Both the position numbers and the translations under genes were made by a program. Below the pieces are notes generated by a model. The model saw nothing but the letters and a program-made list of their open reading frames with translations. It did no database searches and was not told the origin of the DNA. Shown one piece after another: positions 10,860-46,353 of a stretch of DNA of 51,042 nt; position 1 is the first letter of the stretch; every line of letters starts with the position of its first letter. The stretch is from an uncultured Clostridia bacterium (GTDB taxonomy: Bacteria; Bacillota; Clostridia; TANB77; CAG-508): positions 1 to 51,042 of the forward strand of contig CAKPKI010000001.1 of the NCBI GenBank assembly GCA_934167135.1. The letters run 5' to 3'.

Positions 10860-10966
10860 TTGTTTCTCCTTTTATATTATAATTTTTTTATTTTTTCTAA
10901 CTATTTATAATATATAGAAAAAAATAAAAATAATCAAGTGGTTTCTTTTAAAATTAATGAAAATAT

Positions 10967-11207
10967 GTCACTGGTTAATGGTTTATTTTTAATTAATACA
11001 AAGAAATCCTTGAAATATAAGCTTTTTATTGCATTCCTCGGTTTATTACAAAATTTAAGAAATTCTAATTTGTTTTATGGGTCCTTTCCACTATCGTGAA
11101 CTCTTACCATAAAACTGCATAGAATTTCTAAAATTTTTCCATGCACATTCGTCATTTCATTCAAAGCTTATATTTCAAGGATTTCTTTTGAAAATTTTAT
11201 CAAAACC
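10967..11207 (+). repeat. Copy A of a roughly 240-bp nested-palindrome intergenic repeat (MITE-like)
   Basis: It has perfect 26-bp terminal inverted repeats, AAAGAAATCCTTGAAATATAAGCTTT (11000-11025) and its reverse complement (11163-11188). There are also inner inverted repeats (AAAATTTAAGAAATTCTA / TAGAATTTCTAAAATTTT and GTTTTATGG / CCATAAAAC). It is near-identical to the reverse complement of 22418-22659. Confidence 0.85.
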
Positions 11208-11284
11208 ATTATCCTGTAACAAAAATATTACTACTCTGAAAACAAACAGCTCTCTTTTCATAGTAGTAACATAAAAATTATTAT

Positions 11285-11950
11285 CTATTTCATATTTAAT
11301 TGCTTATTTAATTTATTAGTCAATATTTTTTGTCTAATCATATTTATAGCATATGCTACTATTGCAATCACACCATACAAAATCAATATATTTTTGATAT
11401 CTATATCTGTAGAATATTGAACTTTTGTTGGATTAATTTCATTAATTGCTTTATTTAGAATCATTTCATATCCAATATTTATAATAAAAGTAGAAACAGC
11501 TATTATCATAAAAGCAACTATTAATTCAATAATTACTTGTTTTTTTGAGGTCTTCTGGATTGCAACTATGTAGATTATAGTTCCTAATACAATGCCTATT
11601 ATCAATGTTAAAGAATATACTCGCATAATTCTGTTTGTTGAAAATATACTAATAAGTTTATATAAAGATATTCCTTCTGAAGGATAATCTTCTCCATATA
11701 ATTCTTTTTCTTCTTTTGCTTTTTTATCAATTTGTTCAGCCTGTTCTTGATAAGCTTTTCCAATTTCAATTAAAGTTTCAGAATCGCTGTCCAAACTATT
11801 TATTATTTCTAATTGAGTATTCTCATATACAGATGATAAAAACAAAGTCGTAGTTCCTATAAATACAGATATTATAACTGTATATAAAATTGTTACTAAT
11901 AGTTTTTTTATTGAAAATTTTTTGAATTCTATTTTCTTCATATCACTCAC
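11285..11950 (-). CDS. Membrane protein (about 4 TM) partnered with the LytTR regulator
   Basis: Hydrophobic segments are LLVTILYTVIISVFIGTTTLFL, SLTLIIGIVLGTIIYIVAI, IIELIVAFMIIAVSTFII and ILILYGVIAIVAYAI. Its start overlaps the LytTR gene stop by 8 nt. Confidence 0.6.
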   Translation of the reverse strand: MSDMKKIEFKKFSIKKLLVTILYTVIISVFIGTTTLFLSSVYENTQLEIINSLDSDSETLIEIGKAYQEQAEQIDKKAKEEKELYGEDYPSEGISLYKLISIFSTNRIMRVYSLTLIIGIVLGTIIYIVAIQKTSKKQVIIELIVAFMIIAVSTFIINIGYEMILNKAINEINPTKVQYSTDIDIKNILILYGVIAIVAYAINMIRQKILTNKLNKQLNMK

Positions 11951-12407
11951 TCCTATCTTTTAAAAATCTCATAATTTCTGTTGTTTTCCTTTTTGAAACA
12001 CTTTCTTCATTTCCATCTTTAAATTTAACTATTATCTTTCCAATGATACTCGTATTAAAGCATTTAACATGATTTATATTTATAATTGATGAATTAGATA
12101 TTCTAATAAAGTCCTTTGAAGGGAGTGCCTCTTCAAGATAATACAATTTTTCTTTTATTTTATAAACTCCGTCTTTTGTTTTACAAAAGTTATTTTTTTC
12201 TTCACTAAAAAACATTATTACATCTGATACATTAATTATAAAAATATCATTATTTTGCATAGCAATTATCTGTTTTATTGACTTAGAATTTTTTGATAAT
12301 AATTCATTTTCTAATTTTTGTACTTCTTCATTTTTTTCTGGTGCATTAATGCACACTTCTATGCTTTGAAATTCACTTGAAATATTAGTACATACTTTAA
12401 ATTCCAT
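11943..12407 (-). CDS. LytTR-domain DNA-binding protein (stand-alone, no receiver domain)
   Basis: The C-terminal half (YYLEEALPSKDFIRISNSSIININHVKCFN...GKIIVKFKDGNEESVSKRK) fits the LytTR domain pattern. Confidence 0.65.
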   Translation of the reverse strand: MEFKVCTNISSEFQSIEVCINAPEKNEEVQKLENELLSKNSKSIKQIIAMQNNDIFIINVSDVIMFFSEEKNNFCKTKDGVYKIKEKLYYLEEALPSKDFIRISNSSIININHVKCFNTSIIGKIIVKFKDGNEESVSKRKTTEIMRFLKDRSE

Positions 12408-12532: not shown

Positions 12533-14080
12533 CTAGGTAATTCTGTTTAATTGCTTAAAATTGAAATATAAATCTACCTGTTTATCTTGATGTATCTCAA
12601 TTTTATTAATAATTACTTTCATAAATTCTGGTGTTAGTTCTTTTAACGCAAAAAATTCTTGTACAATACTTTTTATTTTTTCTGTATCATCTTGTTTTAA
12701 TTCTCCTTTTTGTTTTTTAATTTCTATGTATTCTTTTTCTTTTTGTTTTATTTCATCTCCAAATTTTTTCAATAATCTTTCATACATTTCTTCACTTATT
12801 TTATTGTTTAATTTGTCTATATACATTTGTTCAATATTATTATTTATCAATTTTATCTCGCTTTCTAATTTTTGAAGTATTTTTCCATAATCATATTTTG
12901 TCATTCCTCTTTTTACTTCTAATTCTATTTTTTCACTATCTATTTTTTGAAATAAATTTTTAATATAATTAATTATAATATCTTCTAAATTATTATAACT
13001 AAATCCATGTGATGTGCAAAGCCCTAATTTTGAATTTCTGCGATAATTATTGCATACCATATAATAATTACCGTTCTTTTTTCCTCTTACACCTATTTTA
13101 TGCTTACATTCGTAACAGAAAAGCAATCCATCTAGCAAAAACATATTCTTTTTTTCATTTCTATTGTAGCTCTGAACTATTACCATTTTTTGCACAACAT
13201 CAAATACTTTTTTATCTATTATTGGTTCATGTGTATTTTCTACAACAACCCATTTTTCTTCTGGATTTTGTCTGATTTTTCTATTTTTATAACTTATTCT
13301 ACTTCTTTTATTTTGCACTGTTGTGCCTATATAAACCTTGTTTTTTAATATATTTTTTACTGTTTTATTTTCCCAAAAAGTTTCTTTATTATATCTTGAT
13401 TTATTAGCTGTCGGAATATTGTTGCTATTTAAATAATCTCTTATTGTTCCAACTTGATTTCCATTAGATGCCATATTAAAAATGCTTCTTACAATTTTTG
13501 CCTCTTGCTCATAAATTATTAATTTATTTTTATCATTTGAATCTTTTATGTATCCAAGTGGCGTTTTTCCACCTACCCATTTTCCTTGTTTTTGCATAGT
13601 GTGCATTGCTGTTCTGATTTTTTTTGATAAGTCTTTTGAATACATATCATTTAATATTGATTTAAATGGTGCAATATCATTGTTGCCATTTGATGTTTCA
13701 AAAGTATCTATTCCATCTGTTACTGAAACATATCTTACATTATTTTCTGGGAACCATTTTTCTATATATTCTCCCGTTTCTATATAGTCACGACCTAAAC
13801 GAGATAAGTCTTTTGTTACAACCATATTAATTTTTCCGTTTTCTATATCTCTTATCATCCTTTGAAAATCTGGTCTATTAAAATTTGTCCCTGTAAAACC
13901 TTGATCTATATATGTATCTATTAATTTATAATTTTCCCCTAATTTTTGCACATATTCTGTTAGTAATGTTCTTTGATTTTTTATGCTTTCACTTTCATCA
14001 TATCCTCTGTCTACATCTTCTTTTGATAGTCTTATATAAATTGCTACTTTGTATGTCGTTTTCTCTTTTTGTTCAAGCAT
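12533..14080 (-). CDS. Large serine recombinase (integrase/resolvase family, 515 aa)
   Basis: The N-terminal resolvase catalytic domain is VAIYIRLSKED...SIKNQR...GFTGTNFNRPDFQRMI...VVTKDLSRLGRD. It is followed by the recombinase domain, a Cys-rich zinc-ribbon region (CYECKHK...CNNYRR...C) and a coiled-coil C-terminus. Confidence 0.9.
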   Translation of the reverse strand: MLEQKEKTTYKVAIYIRLSKEDVDRGYDESESIKNQRTLLTEYVQKLGENYKLIDTYIDQGFTGTNFNRPDFQRMIRDIENGKINMVVTKDLSRLGRDYIETGEYIEKWFPENNVRYVSVTDGIDTFETSNGNNDIAPFKSILNDMYSKDLSKKIRTAMHTMQKQGKWVGGKTPLGYIKDSNDKNKLIIYEQEAKIVRSIFNMASNGNQVGTIRDYLNSNNIPTANKSRYNKETFWENKTVKNILKNKVYIGTTVQNKRSRISYKNRKIRQNPEEKWVVVENTHEPIIDKKVFDVVQKMVIVQSYNRNEKKNMFLLDGLLFCYECKHKIGVRGKKNGNYYMVCNNYRRNSKLGLCTSHGFSYNNLEDIIINYIKNLFQKIDSEKIELEVKRGMTKYDYGKILQKLESEIKLINNNIEQMYIDKLNNKISEEMYERLLKKFGDEIKQKEKEYIEIKKQKGELKQDDTEKIKSIVQEFFALKELTPEFMKVIINKIEIHQDKQVDLYFNFKQLNRIT

Positions 14081-18218: not shown

Positions 18219-19553
18219 TTATAATCCCATAATAACTGTCGCAATATTAAAATACACTAATACAGAAAGAATATCAACAATAGTAGTAATTAATGGTGCT
18301 GCCATAATTGCAGGGTCTAATTTTAGTTTTTTTGCAAGTAAAGGCAATAAGCATCCAATTGACTTAGATAATATAACTGTAGTAGTTATACTTAGACCTA
18401 CTGTACATGCTAATTGTAAGTTTTTATATTGAGCAAAAATTCTTAAGCCATTAATAGTTGCTAATGATATTCCTACTATAACAGCTATTCTTATTTCTTT
18501 CCATAAAATTTTGAATACATCTTTTACTTCAAGTTCATCTGTTGCAAGACCACGAATTATAAGTGTTGAGCTTTGTGAACCACAATTTCCACCTGTATCC
18601 ATTAGCATTGGTAAAAATGCTACTAATAATGGAACTGCAGCAAATGCATTTTCATAATTTGTTATAATTGTTCCAGTTATTGCTGATGAAAGCATTAATA
18701 TTAATAACCATACAATTCTGTTTTTAGCATGTTTGAATACTGATGTTTCAAAATAGCTTTCTTCTGTTGGAGCCATAGCAGCCATTTTTTCAAAATCTTC
18801 CTCTGCTTCATCTTGTAATACATTAATAGCATCATCTACTGTTACTATACCTACTAATCTATTTTCATTGTCAACTACAGGTAATGCATATAAATCATAT
18901 TTATCAAATTTTTTTGCAACTTCTTCTTGATCTTCTAATGTGTTTACAGATATTATATTTGTTTCCATATTATCAGAAATCAATGTGTCTTCTTTTGACA
19001 ATAATAATTCTTTTATACTTATAATTCCTTGTAATTTCCTATTTTCATCTAATACATAACAAGTATATATTGTTTCTGAATCTGTTCCTATTTGGCGTAT
19101 TCTATCTAATGCTTGTTCTATTGTCATATTTTCCTTTAAATCTATAAACTCTGTTGTCATGATACTTCCAGCACTATCATCAGGATATTTTAATAGCTCA
19201 TTGATTATTTTTCTGTCATTTTTATCTACATTTCTTAAAATTCTTGTTACAACATTTGATGGCATTTCTTCTATTAAGTCTACTGTATCATCCATAAATA
19301 ATTCATCTAATATATTTTTTAACTCTGTATCTGTCAAGTCTTTTATTAATTTTTCTCTCATGTCTGTTTCCATATAAGAAAATGCCATACCGGCTTTTTC
19401 TTTTGATAGCAATCTAAAAAGAATAACAGCTTGTTCTTTGTCTAATTCATCTAATATCTCTGATATATCAGCACTTTTCATTTCTTTAAGTTCTTTTTTT
19501 AGTTGTGTAAATTGCTTATTTTCAATTAATTCTTTTATTTCTTCTATATTCAT
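18219..19553 (-). CDS. mgtE: Magnesium transporter MgtE (copy 1)
   Basis: MgtE N-domain, two CBS modules and a TM domain with GGNCGSQSSTLIIRGLA and LDPAIMAAPLITT. The start is at the ATG 7 nt after GGAGG. Confidence 0.9.
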   Translation of the reverse strand: MNIEEIKELIENKQFTQLKKELKEMKSADISEILDELDKEQAVILFRLLSKEKAGMAFSYMETDMREKLIKDLTDTELKNILDELFMDDTVDLIEEMPSNVVTRILRNVDKNDRKIINELLKYPDDSAGSIMTTEFIDLKENMTIEQALDRIRQIGTDSETIYTCYVLDENRKLQGIISIKELLLSKEDTLISDNMETNIISVNTLEDQEEVAKKFDKYDLYALPVVDNENRLVGIVTVDDAINVLQDEAEEDFEKMAAMAPTEESYFETSVFKHAKNRIVWLLILMLSSAITGTIITNYENAFAAVPLLVAFLPMLMDTGGNCGSQSSTLIIRGLATDELEVKDVFKILWKEIRIAVIVGISLATINGLRIFAQYKNLQLACTVGLSITTTVILSKSIGCLLPLLAKKLKLDPAIMAAPLITTIVDILSVLVYFNIATVIMGL

Positions 19554-19568
19554 TTTCACCCCTCCTTG

Positions 19569-20906
19569 CTAAAGTCCCATAACATGTGTTGCAACTTGGA
19601 AATAAACCAATATTGAACACACATCAACAACTGTTGTAATTAATGGTGCTGCCATAATTGCAGGGTCTAATTTTAATCTTTTAGCAAGTAGTGGTAATGT
19701 ACAACCTATTATTTTAGATACAAGTACTGTTGCTATTAATGTAATATTTAAAACAATTGCAAGTTGCATATTTTGATATTGAATCATTATTCTTATCATG
19801 TTTACAATTGCTAAAGCAATACCAACAACTATTGCCACTCTGATTTCTTTCCAAAGTACCCTAAATATGTCTTTTAATTTTATTTCATCTGTGGCAAGTC
19901 CACGGATTATAAGTGTTGAACTTTGTGAACCGCAATTTCCACCTGTTCCCATTATCATAGGAATAAACGCTACTAATATTGGTACTACAGCAAACGCATC
20001 TTCATATTTGGTTAATATGTTTCCTGTAAATGCTGATGATAACATTAATATCAATAGCCATAATATTCTGCTTTTTGCATGTTTAAATACTGATGTCTGA
20101 AAATATCCTTCTTCTGTTGGTGTTATAGCTGCCATCTTTTCAAAATCTTCTTCTACTTCATCTTGTAATACATTTATAGCATCATCTATTGTTATTATTC
20201 CAACTAGTCTATTTTCATGATCTACAACTGGTAGTGCATAATAGTCATATTTATCAAATTTTTTTGCAACTTCTTCTTGATCTTCTAATGTTTTTACAGA
20301 TATTATATTTGTTTCCATTAGAGTTCCTATCTTTGTTTCCTTTTTACTTAATAGAATGTCTTTTATATTTATAATACCTTTTAATATTCTTTCTGTGTTT
20401 AATACATAACAAGTATATATTGTTTCAGAATCTATTCCAATTTTTCTAACTCTTTTTAGTGCTTCTTCTGCTGTCATGTCTTCTTTTAAATCTATAAATT
20501 CTGTTGTCATTATGCTTCCTGCACTATCTTCTGGATATTTTAATAATTCATTGATTACCTTTCTGTCTTCATGTGGAATTGCCTTTAGTATTTTAGGAAT
20601 TATATTTGATGGCATTTCTTCTATTAAGTCTACTGTATCATCCATGAATAATTCATCTAATACATTTTTTAATTCTGTGTCTGTTAAATCTTGTATTAAT
20701 TTTTCTCTCATGTCTGATTCCATATGTGAAAATGTTTCTCCTGCTTTTTCTTTTTTTAATAGTCTAAATACTATTATTACACTTTCTTTGTTATCTAGTT
20801 CATCCAATATTTCTGATATATCTGCACTATTCATTTCTTCTAATTTACTTTTTAACATTGTAAATTTTTTGTTTTCTACTAATTCTTTTATTTCTTCTAT
20901 TTCCAT
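19569..20906 (-). CDS. mgtE: Magnesium transporter MgtE (copy 2, tandem paralog)
   Basis: Same architecture and motifs as copy 1. The start is at the ATG after AGGGGGAAAG (MEIEEIKELVENK). Confidence 0.9.
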   Translation of the reverse strand: MEIEEIKELVENKKFTMLKSKLEEMNSADISEILDELDNKESVIIVFRLLKKEKAGETFSHMESDMREKLIQDLTDTELKNVLDELFMDDTVDLIEEMPSNIIPKILKAIPHEDRKVINELLKYPEDSAGSIMTTEFIDLKEDMTAEEALKRVRKIGIDSETIYTCYVLNTERILKGIINIKDILLSKKETKIGTLMETNIISVKTLEDQEEVAKKFDKYDYYALPVVDHENRLVGIITIDDAINVLQDEVEEDFEKMAAITPTEEGYFQTSVFKHAKSRILWLLILMLSSAFTGNILTKYEDAFAVVPILVAFIPMIMGTGGNCGSQSSTLIIRGLATDEIKLKDIFRVLWKEIRVAIVVGIALAIVNMIRIMIQYQNMQLAIVLNITLIATVLVSKIIGCTLPLLAKRLKLDPAIMAAPLITTVVDVCSILVYFQVATHVMGL

Positions 20907-20968
20907 TTCTTTCCCCCTATCTATTTGAATAATTAAGAAATGGATTAAAAAATAATGTATCAAAAAAT

Positions 20969-21083: not shown

Positions 21084-22307
21084 TTATTTTCTGCCTATAT
21101 AGTAGTTTTTCTTTCCTCTTTTTATAATTATATATGTATTATCTATAAACATATCATCTGTTATTGTTGTTGCTATATCTGTGACTTTTTCCCCATTTAT
21201 TGAGATTGCTCCACTTTGCGTAAATTCTCTTGCTTCTCTTTTGCTAGAAGCGGTTCCAATTTTAACTAGCATATCAATAATTCCTATATTACTTTCTACT
21301 TCTTTAATATCTTGTTCATCAAATAGGTCTGTAATATCTTGTTTTGTTAGGTTTTTGAATTCATTATTAAATAAATTTTGTGCTAACTTTTCTGCTCTTT
21401 CGTATTCTTCTTTTCCATGTAAAAATGTAATAATTTCCCTTGCTAGTGCTTTGTGTGCTTCTCTTAATTCTGGATGCTCTGCATTTTTCTTTGCATATTC
21501 TTCAATTTCTTCTTTTGATAAGAATGTATAGATTTTTAAGTAATCTATTACCATACTATCTTCTACATTTATAAAGAATTGATATAGTTTATAACTTGAT
21601 GTTTTGTTTTTATCTAACCATAGTGCATTTCCTTCACTTTTTCCGAATTTTTTTCCTTGTGAATCTGTAACTAATGGCATTGTAAATCCATATACTTCAT
21701 CTCCTGTTGACCTTCTTATTAAGTCTATTCCAGCTGTTATATTTCCCCATTGGTCAGAGCCAGCACATTGCAAGTCTACTCCTTTAACTTCATGTAAATG
21801 CTTAAAGTCTAATGCTTGTAATATCATATATGAAAATTCTGTATATGTAATTCCTGATTCTAGTCTTCTTCTTATTATGTCTTTGTCTAACATGTAATTT
21901 ATATTAAAATATTTTCCATAATCTCTTAAAAAATCTATTATATTTATATCTTGATACCAATCATTATTGTTTACAACTTCAAACCCAAATATTTTTTCTA
22001 CTTGTGCTTTTAAACTCTCAAAGTTGTGTTTTACTTGTTCTTTACTTATCATTGCTCTTTCTGTTGTAGGTCTTGGATCACCTATCATTCCTGTTCCTCC
22101 ACCTACTAAAAGTATCGGATTATGACCCGCTTCTTTTAACCTTTTTGATATTAAAAAACTTGATAAATGTCCAACATGTAAGCTATCTGCTGTTGGATCT
22201 GTTCCTATATAAAATGTTAGTCCTCCTTGGTTTAATTTTTTTTCTAATTCTGGACTTGATATATCTTTTATTAATCCTCTCCATTTTAATTCTTCCACTA
22301 ATGTCAT
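21084..22307 (-). CDS. tyrS: Tyrosyl-tRNA synthetase
   Basis: TDPTADSLHVGHL (HIGH motif), KFGKSEG (KMSKS motif) and a C-terminal S4-like domain. The start is at the ATG after GAAAGGAGC. Confidence 0.92.
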   Translation of the reverse strand: MTLVEELKWRGLIKDISSPELEKKLNQGGLTFYIGTDPTADSLHVGHLSSFLISKRLKEAGHNPILLVGGGTGMIGDPRPTTERAMISKEQVKHNFESLKAQVEKIFGFEVVNNNDWYQDINIIDFLRDYGKYFNINYMLDKDIIRRRLESGITYTEFSYMILQALDFKHLHEVKGVDLQCAGSDQWGNITAGIDLIRRSTGDEVYGFTMPLVTDSQGKKFGKSEGNALWLDKNKTSSYKLYQFFINVEDSMVIDYLKIYTFLSKEEIEEYAKKNAEHPELREAHKALAREIITFLHGKEEYERAEKLAQNLFNNEFKNLTKQDITDLFDEQDIKEVESNIGIIDMLVKIGTASSKREAREFTQSGAISINGEKVTDIATTITDDMFIDNTYIIIKRGKKNYYIGRK

Positions 22308-22344
22308 TGGTAGTGCTCCTTTCAAATTCGCTTAATTCTATTAT

Positions 22345-22373
22345 ATTATACCATATTTGTACTTTTTTGACAA
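22345..22373 (-). promoter_or_regulatory. Candidate sigma-A promoter of tyrS
   Basis: On the minus strand: TTGTCA, 17 nt, TATAAT, with a TG-extended -10. Confidence 0.45.
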
Positions 22374-22417
22374 TTATTTTTTTTATTTAAAAAGCAAAAA
22401 GTCGTTACTATATAATG

Positions 22418-22659
22418 GGTTTGATAAAATTTTTAAAAGAAATCCTTTGAAATATAAGCTTTGAATGAAATGACGAATGTGCATGGAAAAATTTTAGAAA
22501 TTCTATGCAGTTTTATGGTAAGAGTTCACGATAGTGGAAAGGACCCATAAAACAAATTAGAAGTTCTTAAATTTTGTAATAAACCGAGGAATGTAATAAA
22601 AAGCTTATATTTCAAAGGATTTCTTTGTATTATTTTAAAATAAACCGTTAACCAGTAAC
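22418..22659 (-). repeat. Copy B of the nested-palindrome repeat (inverted relative to copy A)
   Basis: Base-by-base comparison shows near identity to the reverse complement of 10967-11207, including the asymmetric centre TAAGAGTTCACGATAGTGGAAAGGAC. Confidence 0.85.
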
Positions 22660-22702
22660 AAAAAGTCTAGCATTTTACATATAAGCTAGACTTTTATTCA
22701 CA

Positions 22703-23134
22703 TTATTTTTGTTTTTCCTCCAGTTCCTTTATTTCTTCATACATCTCTTTTACTTTTCTTTTTTTATAATCACTTCCATTTCTATATGTAACACATTCTT
22801 CTAAAAAGCCTTCTGCATTCCAAATTATCTTCCGCTTACATACATCATAATCTTCATTATTTTCATCAAAATTTATCTGTTCTAACTCTTTTATAAGTTC
22901 TTTTATATGACTGTACCGCCATTCTATATCTCCAAAATTCATTATATCTAGGTATAGTATTATTGCTATAATAGATACTTCTAATACTAATAGCATATAA
23001 ATTTGAGCTAAAAAGACTAATCCTCCTGGAAATAATGATGGTCCTTTAATGATATAAATTCTAGTACAAATGATAGTTGCTACTGCTGTTACAAGGAACA
23101 TAATCATAATTGCTTTTTTCGTTTTAGCTAACAT
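22703..23134 (-). CDS. Small membrane protein, paralog 1 (2 TM plus a charged helical C-terminus)
   Basis: ORF. Paralogous to 23288-23764 (MLAKTKKAIMIMFLVT... against MMAKMERAIKLVFLVT...), with a shared EEC..Y motif. The start could alternatively be the GTG at 23140. Confidence 0.55.
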   Translation of the reverse strand: MLAKTKKAIMIMFLVTAVATIICTRIYIIKGPSLFPGGLVFLAQIYMLLVLEVSIIAIILYLDIMNFGDIEWRYSHIKELIKELEQINFDENNEDYDVCKRKIIWNAEGFLEECVTYRNGSDYKKRKVKEMYEEIKELEEKQK

Positions 23135-23287
23135 GGCCACTTTTTCCTCCTAAAATATTAATTTTAAAAAGCTTTTTTACAAAATAATGTTTTTGATTAA
23201 TTTCTATAAAGATTTTTTTCTATAGTGTAAAAAACAAAAGTCCAGTTTTTATAAACCAGACTCTCGTTCTCTGTTAGTAACCAAATA

Positions 23288-35880: not shown

Positions 35881-37071
35881 CTATTTTATTAATCTTTCTG
35901 TCTCTTTTGCAATCATAAGTTCTTCGTTTGTAGGAATTACATAAACTTTGATTTTAGAATCTGGAGTAGAAATTTCTTTTTCTTCTCCTCTCATATTGTT
36001 TGCTTCTACATCAATATTAACTCCCATAAATTCAAGTTTTTCACAAATTCCTTTTCTGATATTTATTTGGTTTTCTCCAATTCCTCCTGTAAATACTATG
36101 TAATCTACTCCATTCATTGCAATTGCATATTTTGCTATATATGAAGCTATTTCATATTTAAATTTTTCTATTGCAATTGCAGCACTTTCACTATCACCAT
36201 AAGAAGCTAATTCTATTTCTCTAAAATCTGGTGCTAATTCTGATATAGCTTGAAGTCCTGATTTTTTATTTAGTATATCTTCTGTTTGGTCAGGCGTTAA
36301 TCCTTCTTTTCTCATTATAAATGTTACAACAGATGGATCAAGGTCACCTGAACGAGTTACCATTGGAATTCCTCCAAGTGGTGTTAATCCCATACTTGTA
36401 TCTAAAGATTTTCCATCTTTTACAGCACATATACTTGAACCTTGTCCTATATGACATGTAACAATTTTTAAATCTTTAACATCTTTTTTTACAATTTCAG
36501 CTAATCTTTGAGAAACATACATATGAGAAGTTCCATGAGCACCATATTTTCTTACTCCGTATTTTTCATAATATTCATATGGGATTGGATATATGTATTT
36601 TTCTTTTGGCATTGTTTGATGAAATGTAGTATCAAATACTGCTACCATTGGCTTTCCTGGCATAACATTCATACATGCTTTCATTCCTAATATTGCTGCT
36701 GGGTTATGTAATGGTGCAAATATTCCACATTCACTTATTTGTTCCATAACTTTTTCATTTATTACTGCTGATTCTTTGAATATTTCTCCTCCATGTACAA
36801 CTCTATGACCAATTGCTTCAATTTCATCTAAACTATCAATAACTTTATATTTTGGGTTAGTAAATTGTTCAAGTGTAAATTCTATTGCTTCTTTGTGGTC
36901 ATATGCTGGTTTTTTGATTTTAACTTTTTGACCATTTACTTTATGTGTTATAAAAGCCTCTGCTTCTCCTATTCTCTCATATTTTCCAGAAGCTAGAACT
37001 TCTTCTGTTTCCATATTTATTAATTGATATTTTAGTGATGAGCTACCACAATTTAATACTAATATTTTCAT
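35881..37071 (-). CDS. ackA: Acetate kinase (copy 2 in the operon)
   Basis: MKILVLNCGSSSLKYQL, GHRVVHGG, HGTSH and TGGIGEN. Confidence 0.9.
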   Translation of the reverse strand: MKILVLNCGSSSLKYQLINMETEEVLASGKYERIGEAEAFITHKVNGQKVKIKKPAYDHKEAIEFTLEQFTNPKYKVIDSLDEIEAIGHRVVHGGEIFKESAVINEKVMEQISECGIFAPLHNPAAILGMKACMNVMPGKPMVAVFDTTFHQTMPKEKYIYPIPYEYYEKYGVRKYGAHGTSHMYVSQRLAEIVKKDVKDLKIVTCHIGQGSSICAVKDGKSLDTSMGLTPLGGIPMVTRSGDLDPSVVTFIMRKEGLTPDQTEDILNKKSGLQAISELAPDFREIELASYGDSESAAIAIEKFKYEIASYIAKYAIAMNGVDYIVFTGGIGENQINIRKGICEKLEFMGVNIDVEANNMRGEEKEISTPDSKIKVYVIPTNEELMIAKETERLIK

Positions 37072-37092
37072 TTTTTTATTATTCCTTTCCTT

Positions 37093-38286
37093 TTAATTTT
37101 TTACAATTTCTTCTGTTTCTTTGGCAATCATTAGTTCCTCATTTGTTGGAACTACAAAAACTTTTACTTTTGAGTTTGGAGATGAAATTTCTGCTTCCTC
37201 TCCTTTTATTATATTTTCCTTTCCTGATATTTCTACACCCAATACTTCAAGATACTTGCATATTTCACTCCTAGAATAAGGCGATTTTTCTCCAACACCA
37301 GCAGTAAATGTTATTACATCTATTCCACTCATTGCCACTGCACATTTTGCAATATATCCAGCTATTGAGTAATGATAAACATCTAATGCTAATTTTGCAA
37401 GTTTTCCACCTGCTAATGCTTCTGCTTCTATATCTCTAAAATCAACAGAAACCATGGATGTACCAAATACACCTGATTCTTTATTTAAAATATTTTCCAT
37501 TTCATCAGGACTTAAATTCTCTTTTTTCATTAAAAATGTTATAACTGATGGATCTAAATCTCCTGAACGAGTTCCCATTGGAATTCCTCCAAGTGGTGTT
37601 AATCCCATACTAGTTTCTACTGATTCACCATTCTTTATAGCACATATACTTGCTCCTTGTCCTAAATGACAATTTACAATTTTTAATTCTTTAATGTCTT
37701 TTCCTATTATTTCTGCTACTCTATTTGCTACATACTGGTGTGAGGTACCATGAAATCCATATTTTCTTACATGATATTTTTTATAAAATTCATATGGAAT
37801 TGGATATATGTATTTTTCCTTTGATATCGTTTGATGAAATGCGGTATCAAATACTGCCACCATAGGTTTATTAGGTATAACTTTTTTACATGCTTCTATT
37901 CCTAAAACTGCTGATGGGTTATGCAATGGTGCTAATTCTCGTGTATTTTTAATTTCTTCTATTACTTCATCTGTTATTAGAACTGCATTTTTAAATTTTT
38001 CTCCTCCATGTACAACTCTGTGCCCAATTGCATCTAGTTCATCTAAACTTTTAAATATTCCATAAACTTCATTTGTTAATCTTTCCATTACAAATTGTAT
38101 GGCTTTTTCATGATTTTTTACAGGATGTTCAAATTTGTGTTTTTCTCCATTTACTTTATGTCTTAAAAAAGAACCAGCTTGACCTACTCTTTCGTAATTT
38201 CCTTTTACAAGCATTTCTCCTGTATCTGAATCTATAACTTGGTATTTTAAAGATGAACTGCCTGAATTTAATACTAATATCTTCAT
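37093..38286 (-). CDS. ackA: Acetate/propionate kinase family (copy 1 in the operon)
   Basis: MKILVLNSGSSSLKYQV, GHRVVHGG, HGTSH and TAGVGEK. Paralog of 35881-37071. Confidence 0.88.
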   Translation of the reverse strand: MKILVLNSGSSSLKYQVIDSDTGEMLVKGNYERVGQAGSFLRHKVNGEKHKFEHPVKNHEKAIQFVMERLTNEVYGIFKSLDELDAIGHRVVHGGEKFKNAVLITDEVIEEIKNTRELAPLHNPSAVLGIEACKKVIPNKPMVAVFDTAFHQTISKEKYIYPIPYEFYKKYHVRKYGFHGTSHQYVANRVAEIIGKDIKELKIVNCHLGQGASICAIKNGESVETSMGLTPLGGIPMGTRSGDLDPSVITFLMKKENLSPDEMENILNKESGVFGTSMVSVDFRDIEAEALAGGKLAKLALDVYHYSIAGYIAKCAVAMSGIDVITFTAGVGEKSPYSRSEICKYLEVLGVEISGKENIIKGEEAEISSPNSKVKVFVVPTNEELMIAKETEEIVKN

Positions 38287-38308: not shown

Positions 38309-39307
38309 TTATTTTTGTTGTGCTTGAACTGCTGTTATTGCAACTACTCCAGCTACATCAACACTACTGCATCCTCTTGATAAGTCGTTTACAGGTTTTG
38401 CAATTCCTTGACAAAGTGGTCCATATGCTTCTGCTTTTGCTAGTCTTTGAACTAGTTTATATCCTATGTTTCCAGCTCCTAAATCTGGAAATACTAATAC
38501 ATTTGCCTGACCTTTTAAAGGACTTCCTTTTGCTTTAAATTCTGCAACTTCTGGAATTATTGCTGCATCTAATTGTAATTCTCCATCAACTAATAAATTA
38601 GGTTCTTTTTCTTTTACTAATTTTGTTGCTTCAATAACTTTTTCTGTTGATGCAGAATGTGCACTTCCATATGTTGAATATGATAACATTGCTACTTTAG
38701 GTTGTTTTCCTACTAATTGCTCAAAACTTTTGCTTGATGAAATTGCTATTTCTGAAAGTTTTTCTGAATCTGGTTCTTCATTCAGTCCGCTATCTGCAAA
38801 TATAAATGTTCCATTTTCTCCATATTGACAGTCTGGTACTACCATTACAAAAAATGCTGATACTAATTTTGTTCCTGGTGCTGTTTTTAGTATTTGTAAT
38901 GCTGGTCTTAATGTGTCTGATGTTGAGTGTGCTGCTCCTGATACAAGCCCGTCTGCTTCGTCTAATTTTACCATCATCATTCCAAAGTATACAGGTTCTA
39001 ATACTAACTGATTAGCTTGTTCTTCTGTCATTCCTTTTGCTTTTCTTAATTCATAAAGTGCTTTTGCATATTTTTTTGTTTTTTCTGATTTTGCTGGGTC
39101 TACAATTTCGGTTCCACTAATATCTATATTTTTTTCTTTAGATAACTTTTTGACTTCTTCTTCATTACCTATTAATATTACTTTTGCATATCCTTCTTCT
39201 TTTACTATTTTTGCTGCTTCTAATATTCTTATGTCTGTTGCTTCTGGTAATACTATTGTTTTTATTGATTGTTTTGCTCTTTGTTTTATTTGTTCTATGA
39301 ATGACAT
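38309..39307 (-). CDS. pta: Phosphate acetyltransferase
   Basis: IVLPEATDIRILEAA..., GLVSGAAHSTSDTLRPALQ and SRGCS. The start is at the ATG after AAGAAAGGAAATG. Confidence 0.9.
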   Translation of the reverse strand: MSFIEQIKQRAKQSIKTIVLPEATDIRILEAAKIVKEEGYAKVILIGNEEEVKKLSKEKNIDISGTEIVDPAKSEKTKKYAKALYELRKAKGMTEEQANQLVLEPVYFGMMMVKLDEADGLVSGAAHSTSDTLRPALQILKTAPGTKLVSAFFVMVVPDCQYGENGTFIFADSGLNEEPDSEKLSEIAISSSKSFEQLVGKQPKVAMLSYSTYGSAHSASTEKVIEATKLVKEKEPNLLVDGELQLDAAIIPEVAEFKAKGSPLKGQANVLVFPDLGAGNIGYKLVQRLAKAEAYGPLCQGIAKPVNDLSRGCSSVDVAGVVAITAVQAQQK

Positions 39308-39431
39308 ATTTATCATTTCCTTTCTTGTTTTTTTCACCCTTACTATATCATATTTTACACAAAAACACAATATATTTCGACTATAAATATAAAACTCTAG
39401 TATAGGCTAATTATTTATTATAATTCATACT

Positions 39432-39518
39432 AAGAAATCATTAAAATAAATTAGAATTTCTTAAATTTTGTAATAAACCGAGGAATGTAATGAAAAACTT
39501 ATATTTTAATGATTTCTT
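39432..39518 (-). repeat. Copy C, a miniature (about 87 bp) derivative of the nested-palindrome repeat
   Basis: It matches the 22556-22630 part of copy B (TTCTTAAATTTTGTAATAAACCGAGGAATGTAAT). It has its own 17-bp terminal inverted repeats, AAGAAATCATTAAAATA / TATTTTAATGATTTCTT. Confidence 0.7.
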
Positions 39519-39554
39519 GTAAAAAGTAACTAATAATACATTATCTTATAATAA

Positions 39555-46204: not shown

Positions 46205-46353
46205 TTTTTCCTCCTTTTAAGTTTTATTCTTTTGAATATTTTCGTAATTGAATTTTATCATACTTTATTTTTATATTCAATTGTTTAAATATATTTTTAT
46301 GGTAAAAGTTATTACTATCTAATAATTTTGATAAAATTTTCATTAGTAAAAAA

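Follow-up and report, generated by a model that had tools for sequence, protein, structure and literature searches.

The dispersed intergenic repeat described here is very probably a non-autonomous DNA transposon, namely a MITE belonging to the ISBst12-like, single-ORF type within the IS66 family, and this assignment includes its layered interior. The family is real and abundant, and it is a known kind of element whose core is nested and unusually conserved. We place it with the IS66/ISBst12 type because its termini (18-27 bases) and its 8-bp duplication match those of an IS66-family insertion sequence (IS). The window, i.e. the whole stretch of 51,042 nucleotides that was analysed, corresponds to contig C1 of the host genome (labelled G000), a draft assembly of 1.8 Mb in 211 contigs with 27% GC, rated 86% complete.

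A first-pass annotation of the window had described three intergenic, non-coding copies of a repeat folding into a long nested hairpin, and had likened their behaviour to that of MITEs. All three copies are present: the 18-nt loop motif that it had singled out has three exact occurrences in the window, for 0 expected. Copies A and B are, as it had stated, nearly identical in reverse orientation; aligned as inverted repeats of each other they share 93-95% identity, and their cores are 97.8% identical. The start of copy A at 10967 and the end of copy B at 22659 had been placed correctly, but copy A ends at 11220, 13 nt beyond the annotated end, and copy B starts at 22404. The third copy exists, but as a deletion derivative and not as a full copy. 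The copies and their immediate bounds are:

10959..10966, unstranded: left 8-bp target-site duplication of copy A (7/8 match to 11221-11228)
10967..11220, plus strand: copy A, a full MITE of 254 bp whose arms are ordered X - core - Y' (termini, target duplication, alignment with 14 other full copies)
11221..11228, unstranded: right 8-bp target-site duplication of copy A (7/8 match to 10959-10966)
22404..22659, minus strand: copy B, full 256-bp MITE (8/8 target duplication, 22396-22403 and 22660-22667)
39400..39530, minus strand: copy C, situated upstream of pta, a 131-bp derivative with an internal deletion
46311..46349, plus strand: possible fourth relic, a solo Y-type arm made of terminal repeat and linker (resembles the arms of copies A and B at 76-78%)

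Copy C retains the left half of the core, with decayed arms and its target duplication gone. The solo arm at 46311..46349 adjoins a terminator hairpin, and its resemblance to the arms weakly suggests that it may be what is left of a fourth copy. Copies A, B and C were all confirmed to lie in intergenic DNA, among genes that include tyrS (21084-22325, minus strand), pta (38309-39370, minus strand), ackA, a LytTR regulator and a large serine recombinase. The insertion point of copy B is the U-tract of the terminator hairpin that belongs to the gene at 22703-23140. Inspection of the alignment also bore out the absence of coding capacity, as the 254-bp element contains only chance ORFs of at most 26 aa that are broken by indels in other copies.

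Several other features of the window were recorded. The large serine recombinase gene (12533-14080, with Resolvase, Recombinase and zinc-ribbon domains) adjoins the LytTR regulator gene (11943-12407) and lies 1.3 kb from copy A. Two tandem paralogous ORFs, 18219-19559 and 19569-20963, are 75-81% identical in DNA (window 18219-20963), and the acetate kinase gene (37093-38286) is preceded by a paralogous stretch that is about 69-79% identical (window 36257-38286). In many Firmicutes tyrS is T-box regulated. The Rfam scan found no T-box leader in the window, and the start codon of tyrS lies only 79 nt downstream of copy B (gap 22326-22403); control of this tyrS may differ from the T-box type or may have been displaced.

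A genome-wide blastn census with a search for target-site duplications had been proposed in the first-pass annotation. With copy A as query, blastn returned about 83 family loci in the host genome, some 15 of them full length, and many of the copies are located at contig ends, where they break the contigs. When the 15 full copies were aligned together with their flanks, similarity ended at the GTAAC-type termini and the flanks were unrelated; with about 83 dispersed loci, the family consists of discrete units and not of parts of a larger duplication. Pairing of the 18-nt terminal motif showed that full copies are uniformly 252-256 bp long, with termini GTTAC...GTAAC and 18-nt terminal inverted repeats at both ends. 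Direct target duplications of 8 bp flank all nine of the cleanly bounded copies (six match at 8/8 and three at 7/8 positions); for random 8-mers taken at the same spacing in the host genome, the probability of a match of at least 7/8 is 0.0017. Identical termini with perfect 8-bp duplications were also found in another genus (genome G219), and several congeners carry dozens of family copies. The median gap from the upstream stop codon to the element is 37 nt (98 copies, many genomes). Two types of arm, X and Y, flank the asymmetric core and yield two isomers, X-core-Y' and Y-core-X', each of which is a subfamily. Short forms of 51-160 bp are internal deletions, and some of them keep perfect 8-bp duplications. 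The properties by which bacterial MITEs are recognised thus occur together here: 254 bp of non-coding sequence, terminal repeats, a fixed 8-bp duplication, dispersed copies by the dozen and termini shared with an IS of the IS66 family. The earlier comparison with MITEs was therefore well founded.

Some divergent and partial matches were also noted. Genome G043, of the same genus, contains 58 matches to the element, mostly of 71-87% identity (e.g. C12:12330-12676 and C2:72504-72821), and in some of them the right half of the core has an apparent extra insert of ~95 bp; their level of sequence identity suggests a diverged subfamily. On contig C27 of the host genome, an 84-bp core fragment (G000:C27:2995-3078) comprises only the helices and the apex and is 100% identical to copy A. 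It is located inside a contig, devoid of arms and closing stem, and either a recent partial copy or a chimera of the assembly could explain it. Phage and plasmid collections gave no match to the element.

The first-pass annotation had suggested that a cognate transposase with matching ends might be found, for example of the IS200/IS605 or IS630 type. A partner with matching ends does exist, but it belongs to the IS66 family. Searching the host genome for IS66-type DDE domains retrieved one, in a decayed element on contig C88 (L108 80-1443). This element comprises a coiled-coil ORF (409-669), a C-terminal DDE ORF (836-1294) whose product matches PF03050 with an E value of 1e-5, and a diverged left end; its right end is the same as that of the MITE, the terminus that matches the MITE terminal motif lying ~130 bp past the DDE fragment. 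An intact IS of 1954 bp was found in the same-genus genome G055 (L114 1404-3357), to which the C88 element aligns in two blocks with an internal gap between them. The intact IS ends in perfect terminal repeats that do not differ from the MITE termini, and a direct repeat of 8 bp lies at its flanks. Its sole ORF of at least 100 aa encodes 535 aa and matches PF03050 (DDE_Tnp_IS66) over 276 residues (E 4e-20), and accessory TnpA/TnpB genes are absent. A DDE_Tnp_IS66 domain, an 8-bp duplication and a single ORF are the marks of the ISBst12 group, and all of them are seen in this IS. In ISDge4, a member of this group within the IS66 family, one ORF is likewise associated with an 8-bp direct repeat and termini of the GTGACT/GTAACT type (PMC12898284). 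The ends of copy A that correspond to the IS are:

10967..10984, plus strand: left-hand 18-nt terminal inverted repeat of copy A (agrees with the ends of the IS66-type IS in L114 and L108)
11203..11220, minus strand: right terminal inverted repeat of copy A, which with the adjoining linker matches the left end of the IS (27 nt, 89%, blastn)

The Y arm of the MITE therefore shares 27 nt at 89% with the IS left end, and the X arm ~18 nt. Neither the interior nor the core of the MITE resembles the IS interior, in which the loop motifs are absent, and the element is thus not a simple deletion derivative of the IS. In the host genome (86% complete) no intact transposase gene for the element was found, only the decayed copy on C88. 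Genome G055, which contains the intact IS, has no copy of the MITE core, so that we infer mobilisation in trans from the shared ends only. At L114 3310-3357 the right terminal repeat of the IS is accompanied by a tandem second copy, 30 bp inward of the outer one.

Other candidate partners in the host genome were rejected. The ISL3 element on contig C162 lacks the MITE termini; its transposase gene (G000:C162:1828-2598) is apparently intact, with a 434-aa open frame, and is unrelated to the repeat. An IS256-type match was below threshold, and pairs of termini 0.4-6 kb apart enclose ordinary genes and no transposase.

We propose that the transposase of such an IS would bind the shared termini and move the element in trans, with cuts staggered by 8 bp and mostly in AT-rich intergenic DNA just past terminators. 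The outer arms would derive from the IS ends and would enclose a 26-bp hairpin; a separate unit of 115 bp would have been inserted into the 11-nt loop of this hairpin, the loop being duplicated thereby, and deletion within the hairpin would have given rise to the short forms (51-160 bp). No precise empty insertion site was recovered: three congeners have no copy upstream of tyrS, and the upstream sequence is not alignable there. Metagenome contigs scanned for empty sites gave no match at all and are hence uninformative.

Folded on either strand, copy A forms a very long hairpin (-71 to -80 kcal/mol, z about -10). The nested architecture given in the first-pass annotation was recovered: the outer stem measures 26 bp, the inner stems 17 and 9 bp and the apex 26 nt, and a large asymmetric internal loop separates the outer from the inner stems. 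From the outside to the inside and back, its layers are:

11000..11025, plus strand: 5' arm of the closing stem, 26 bp (fold)
11026..11036, plus strand: left copy of an 11-nt direct repeat, read as the duplicated hairpin loop and containing part of the annotated motif (identity to the right copy)
11037..11151, plus strand: inner unit, 115 bp, with non-complementary ends, 17-bp and 9-bp helices and 26-nt apex (alignments A1-A4)
11152..11162, plus strand: right copy of the 11-nt direct repeat (identity to the left copy)
11163..11188, plus strand: 3' arm of the closing stem, 26 bp (fold, covariation)

The conserved, unpaired internal loop had been taken as a sign of recognition by a protein or an RNA. 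A simpler anatomy would account for it: the internal loop is made up of both copies of the 11-nt repeat and of the non-complementary ends of the inner unit, and the annotated motif runs from the last part of the left repeat copy into the left end of the unit. The two copies of the repeat (9/11 identical in copy A, 10/11 in the family consensus) directly abut both arms of the 26-bp stem, and contig C9 of the host genome carries the same arms and stem around a single 11-nt loop, the inner unit being absent. The conserved loop is therefore best read as a junction scar left by a 115-bp unit lying within a duplicated 11-nt hairpin loop, and the simplest reading is that the unit entered the loop and duplicated it. 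Against this layered origin, the 11-nt repeat represents one ancestral event (roughly p 0.003 by our own estimate) and the unit-less form on C9 is equally explained by deletion between the two repeats. The ends of the unit are conserved across genera and may possibly be recognised by some protein, e.g. a second transposase.

The statement that the repeat matches no named ncRNA family held in Rfam scans, which returned 0 hits in the window at the gathering score and, for copy A at E values up to 10, only noise (best E 0.33). A reading of the large central bubble as resembling 6S RNA was ruled out: the element does not match the 6S model and the genome has its own 6S RNA at C62:379-570 (87 bits).

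We then examined how the inner unit is conserved and distributed. An exact-pattern scan of one genome per species located it at over 100 loci in no fewer than 13 MAG species; the pattern lies within the apex, whose columns are therefore biased. Over 50 modelled pairs in 33 full copies, 97.9% are paired, and 17 pairs show compensatory changes, whereas shuffles gave 6.8 such pairs and slid controls no more than 7; in the closing stem of these 33 copies, compensatory changes affect 14 of the 22 modelled pairs. Mismatches of the G-U and of the A-C kind occur with equal frequency (about 17 each), so neither strand is favoured. A diverged family present in genomes G001 and G014 has both helices and both loop motifs in common with the MITE core; its apex contains an additional 17-nt hairpin, and its closing stem is another one. 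Between these two diverged families, and among several genera, the closing stem and the apex vary whereas loop motifs and helices are kept. Of 121 genomes of the order, 20 contain the core according to covariance model R1, built from both families, and 7 of the 25 genera sampled are represented; the model scores 211 bits on copy A at 11004-11184. In other genomes the inner unit is placed in many unrelated closing stems; the last bases of its left flank are mostly TTC, and those of the unit are ATTC. In nine orthologous insertion pairs the core is 95.4% identical, versus 86.7% for the flanks and about 85% for the arms, i.e. it evolves about three times more slowly than arms and flanks. Where the neighbouring genes are co-directional, the core shares their orientation in a ratio of 51:22 (60:27 including G219, p about 5e-4, the copies not being fully independent).

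The loci in G001 and G014 deserve a separate description. There (L140-L144, e.g. L144 97-347 and L140 123-378), each copy of the inner unit is closed by a long inverted repeat (32-62 bp, 94-98% complementary) whose outer 20-35 bp are locus-specific, unique in the genome and common only to the orthologous locus of the sister species. The outer flanks of these copies are inverted and not direct repeats. Such long palindromes could result from arm-to-arm copying or from insertion into pre-existing palindromes; the locus-specific arms were not found in 200 other genomes of the genus, and no empty hairpin was recovered.

The slow core of the nine orthologous pairs is unexpected for a purely selfish, neutrally decaying relic and speaks against the IS66-type MITE reading. 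Tentatively, the inner unit may be an independent conserved module of the gut Clostridia of this order, either a functional RNA or single-stranded DNA motif or a loop-targeting mobile element, which would have settled repeatedly in different hairpins, among them IS66-type MITEs and long locus-specific palindromes; some protein would recognise the unpaired, invariant ends of the unit. Each of the two natures that such a module might have can be weighed against the data.

That the core is a functional structured RNA riding on the MITE, for instance a cis-acting element of 3'-UTRs or the vicinity of terminators or a small RNA, with the internal-loop nucleotides serving as recognition sites for a protein or an RNA, appears unlikely. 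The nearly complete pairing and the excess of compensatory changes over shuffled controls, the persistence of loop motifs and helices across families and genera while closing stem and apex vary, the slow evolution of the core in orthologous copies, the bias towards co-orientation, also seen with G219 included, and the position some 37 nt after the upstream stop codon all speak for such an RNA. However, the same core is found dozens of times per genome between transposon ends and target duplications, the balance of G-U and A-C mismatches favours neither strand, and no Rfam family matches. Neither a promoter nor a terminator signal was found above chance in the element, and single-copy instances of the core have no conserved gene neighbours. 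Arm-to-arm copying and gene conversion among near-identical copies would also give rise to compensatory changes and to a slow core. Genes of Firmicutes are mostly co-oriented with replication, and the orientation bias could come from the direction of replication.

It is more doubtful still that the 115-bp unit is a second mobile element targeting single-stranded hairpin loops, be it a derivative of the IS200/IS605 kind or a DDE element making 11-bp duplications, with its non-complementary ends as the sites of its own transposase. The asymmetric ends, which form no terminal inverted repeat, the position of the unit exactly in a hairpin loop whose 11 nt are duplicated on either side, its many unrelated closing stems across genomes and the TTC and ATTC endings of left flank and unit point in this direction, and the orientation bias applies here too. 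On the other hand, the host genome has no Y1_Tnp gene, only a weak, sub-threshold match to a TnpB-type zinc ribbon, and the core model found no similarity to the unit near eight Y1 (IS200/IS605) loci of the same bacterial family. No long element bounded by the ends of the unit exists in the host genome, and in several lineages the unit is flanked by inverted and not by direct repeats. IS200/IS605 elements, moreover, are not known to make target duplications.

Finally, it is extremely improbable that the copies were left behind by a larger segmental duplication or produced by the assembly, as might be thought from the many copies at contig ends and from the 84-bp fragment on C27 identical to copy A: similarity stops exactly at the termini, the unrelated flanks carry 8-bp direct repeats and the same element with its own duplications recurs in many independent assemblies, so that sharp boundaries and target duplications refute this view.

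With the repeat taken as an IS66-type MITE, the likeliest explanation for the maintenance of stem pairing is DNA-level copying from arm to arm or selection for the hairpin; an RNA role is possible. The conserved core may be under selection as RNA or as single-stranded DNA; templated arm copying, gene conversion among many similar copies and a replication-linked insertion bias also explain the data.

These results document an abundant MITE lineage of the IS66/ISBst12 type in uncultured gut Clostridia with small, low-GC genomes. The family explains much of the fragmentation of the assemblies of the host and of related gut Clostridia, as many contigs end inside a copy, and masking it is advisable in gene callers and in screens for ncRNAs. 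Located just past terminators and before housekeeping genes such as tyrS and pta, its copies could alter gene expression. The layered anatomy, together with an inner unit that evolves slowly and covaries across genera, makes the family a test case for DNA-level arm copying versus a second transposase versus a function at the RNA level.

Among known systems, the IS200/IS605-derived PATEs resemble the inner unit alone, by its asymmetric ends, its richness in hairpins and its orientation bias. Unlike them, the element as a whole ends in inverted repeats and is bordered by 8-bp duplications, by which its identification as a PATE was ruled out, and no link to a Y1 transposase was found. The Correia (NEMIS) repeats of Neisseria and the ERIC repeats of enterobacteria are comparable as abundant intergenic palindromic MITEs that form long hairpins near gene ends and exist in full and internally deleted forms, but they belong to another host phylum, differ in target duplication (TA for Correia), show no sequence similarity to the element and have partner transposases that are unknown or different. 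The bcr1 repeat of the Bacillus cereus group (Okstad 2004; Klevan 2007; PMC3184786) is, like the element, a dispersed, MITE-like intergenic repeat of Firmicutes with target duplications and a fold kept by compensatory changes. It is about 155 bp long, makes 5-bp duplications, folds into a cruciform-like structure of two hairpins, is transcribed, has no known link to IS66 and shares no sequence similarity with the element. The literature searched contained no described IS66-family MITE in Clostridia. Most similar are the MITEs derived from insertion sequences of the ISBst12 group (e.g. the single-ORF ISBst12 and ISDge4; PMC12898284), with which the element shares the 8-bp duplication, the GTNAC-type termini and a one-ORF DDE_Tnp_IS66 partner, although its exact terminal sequence differs from that of the published members. 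Like a MITE of an ISBst12-group IS, it is small and non-coding and has only the terminal 18-27 nt in common with the IS; unlike the MITEs of this group, it carries as its interior an unrelated nested hairpin module instead of a deletion remnant of the IS.
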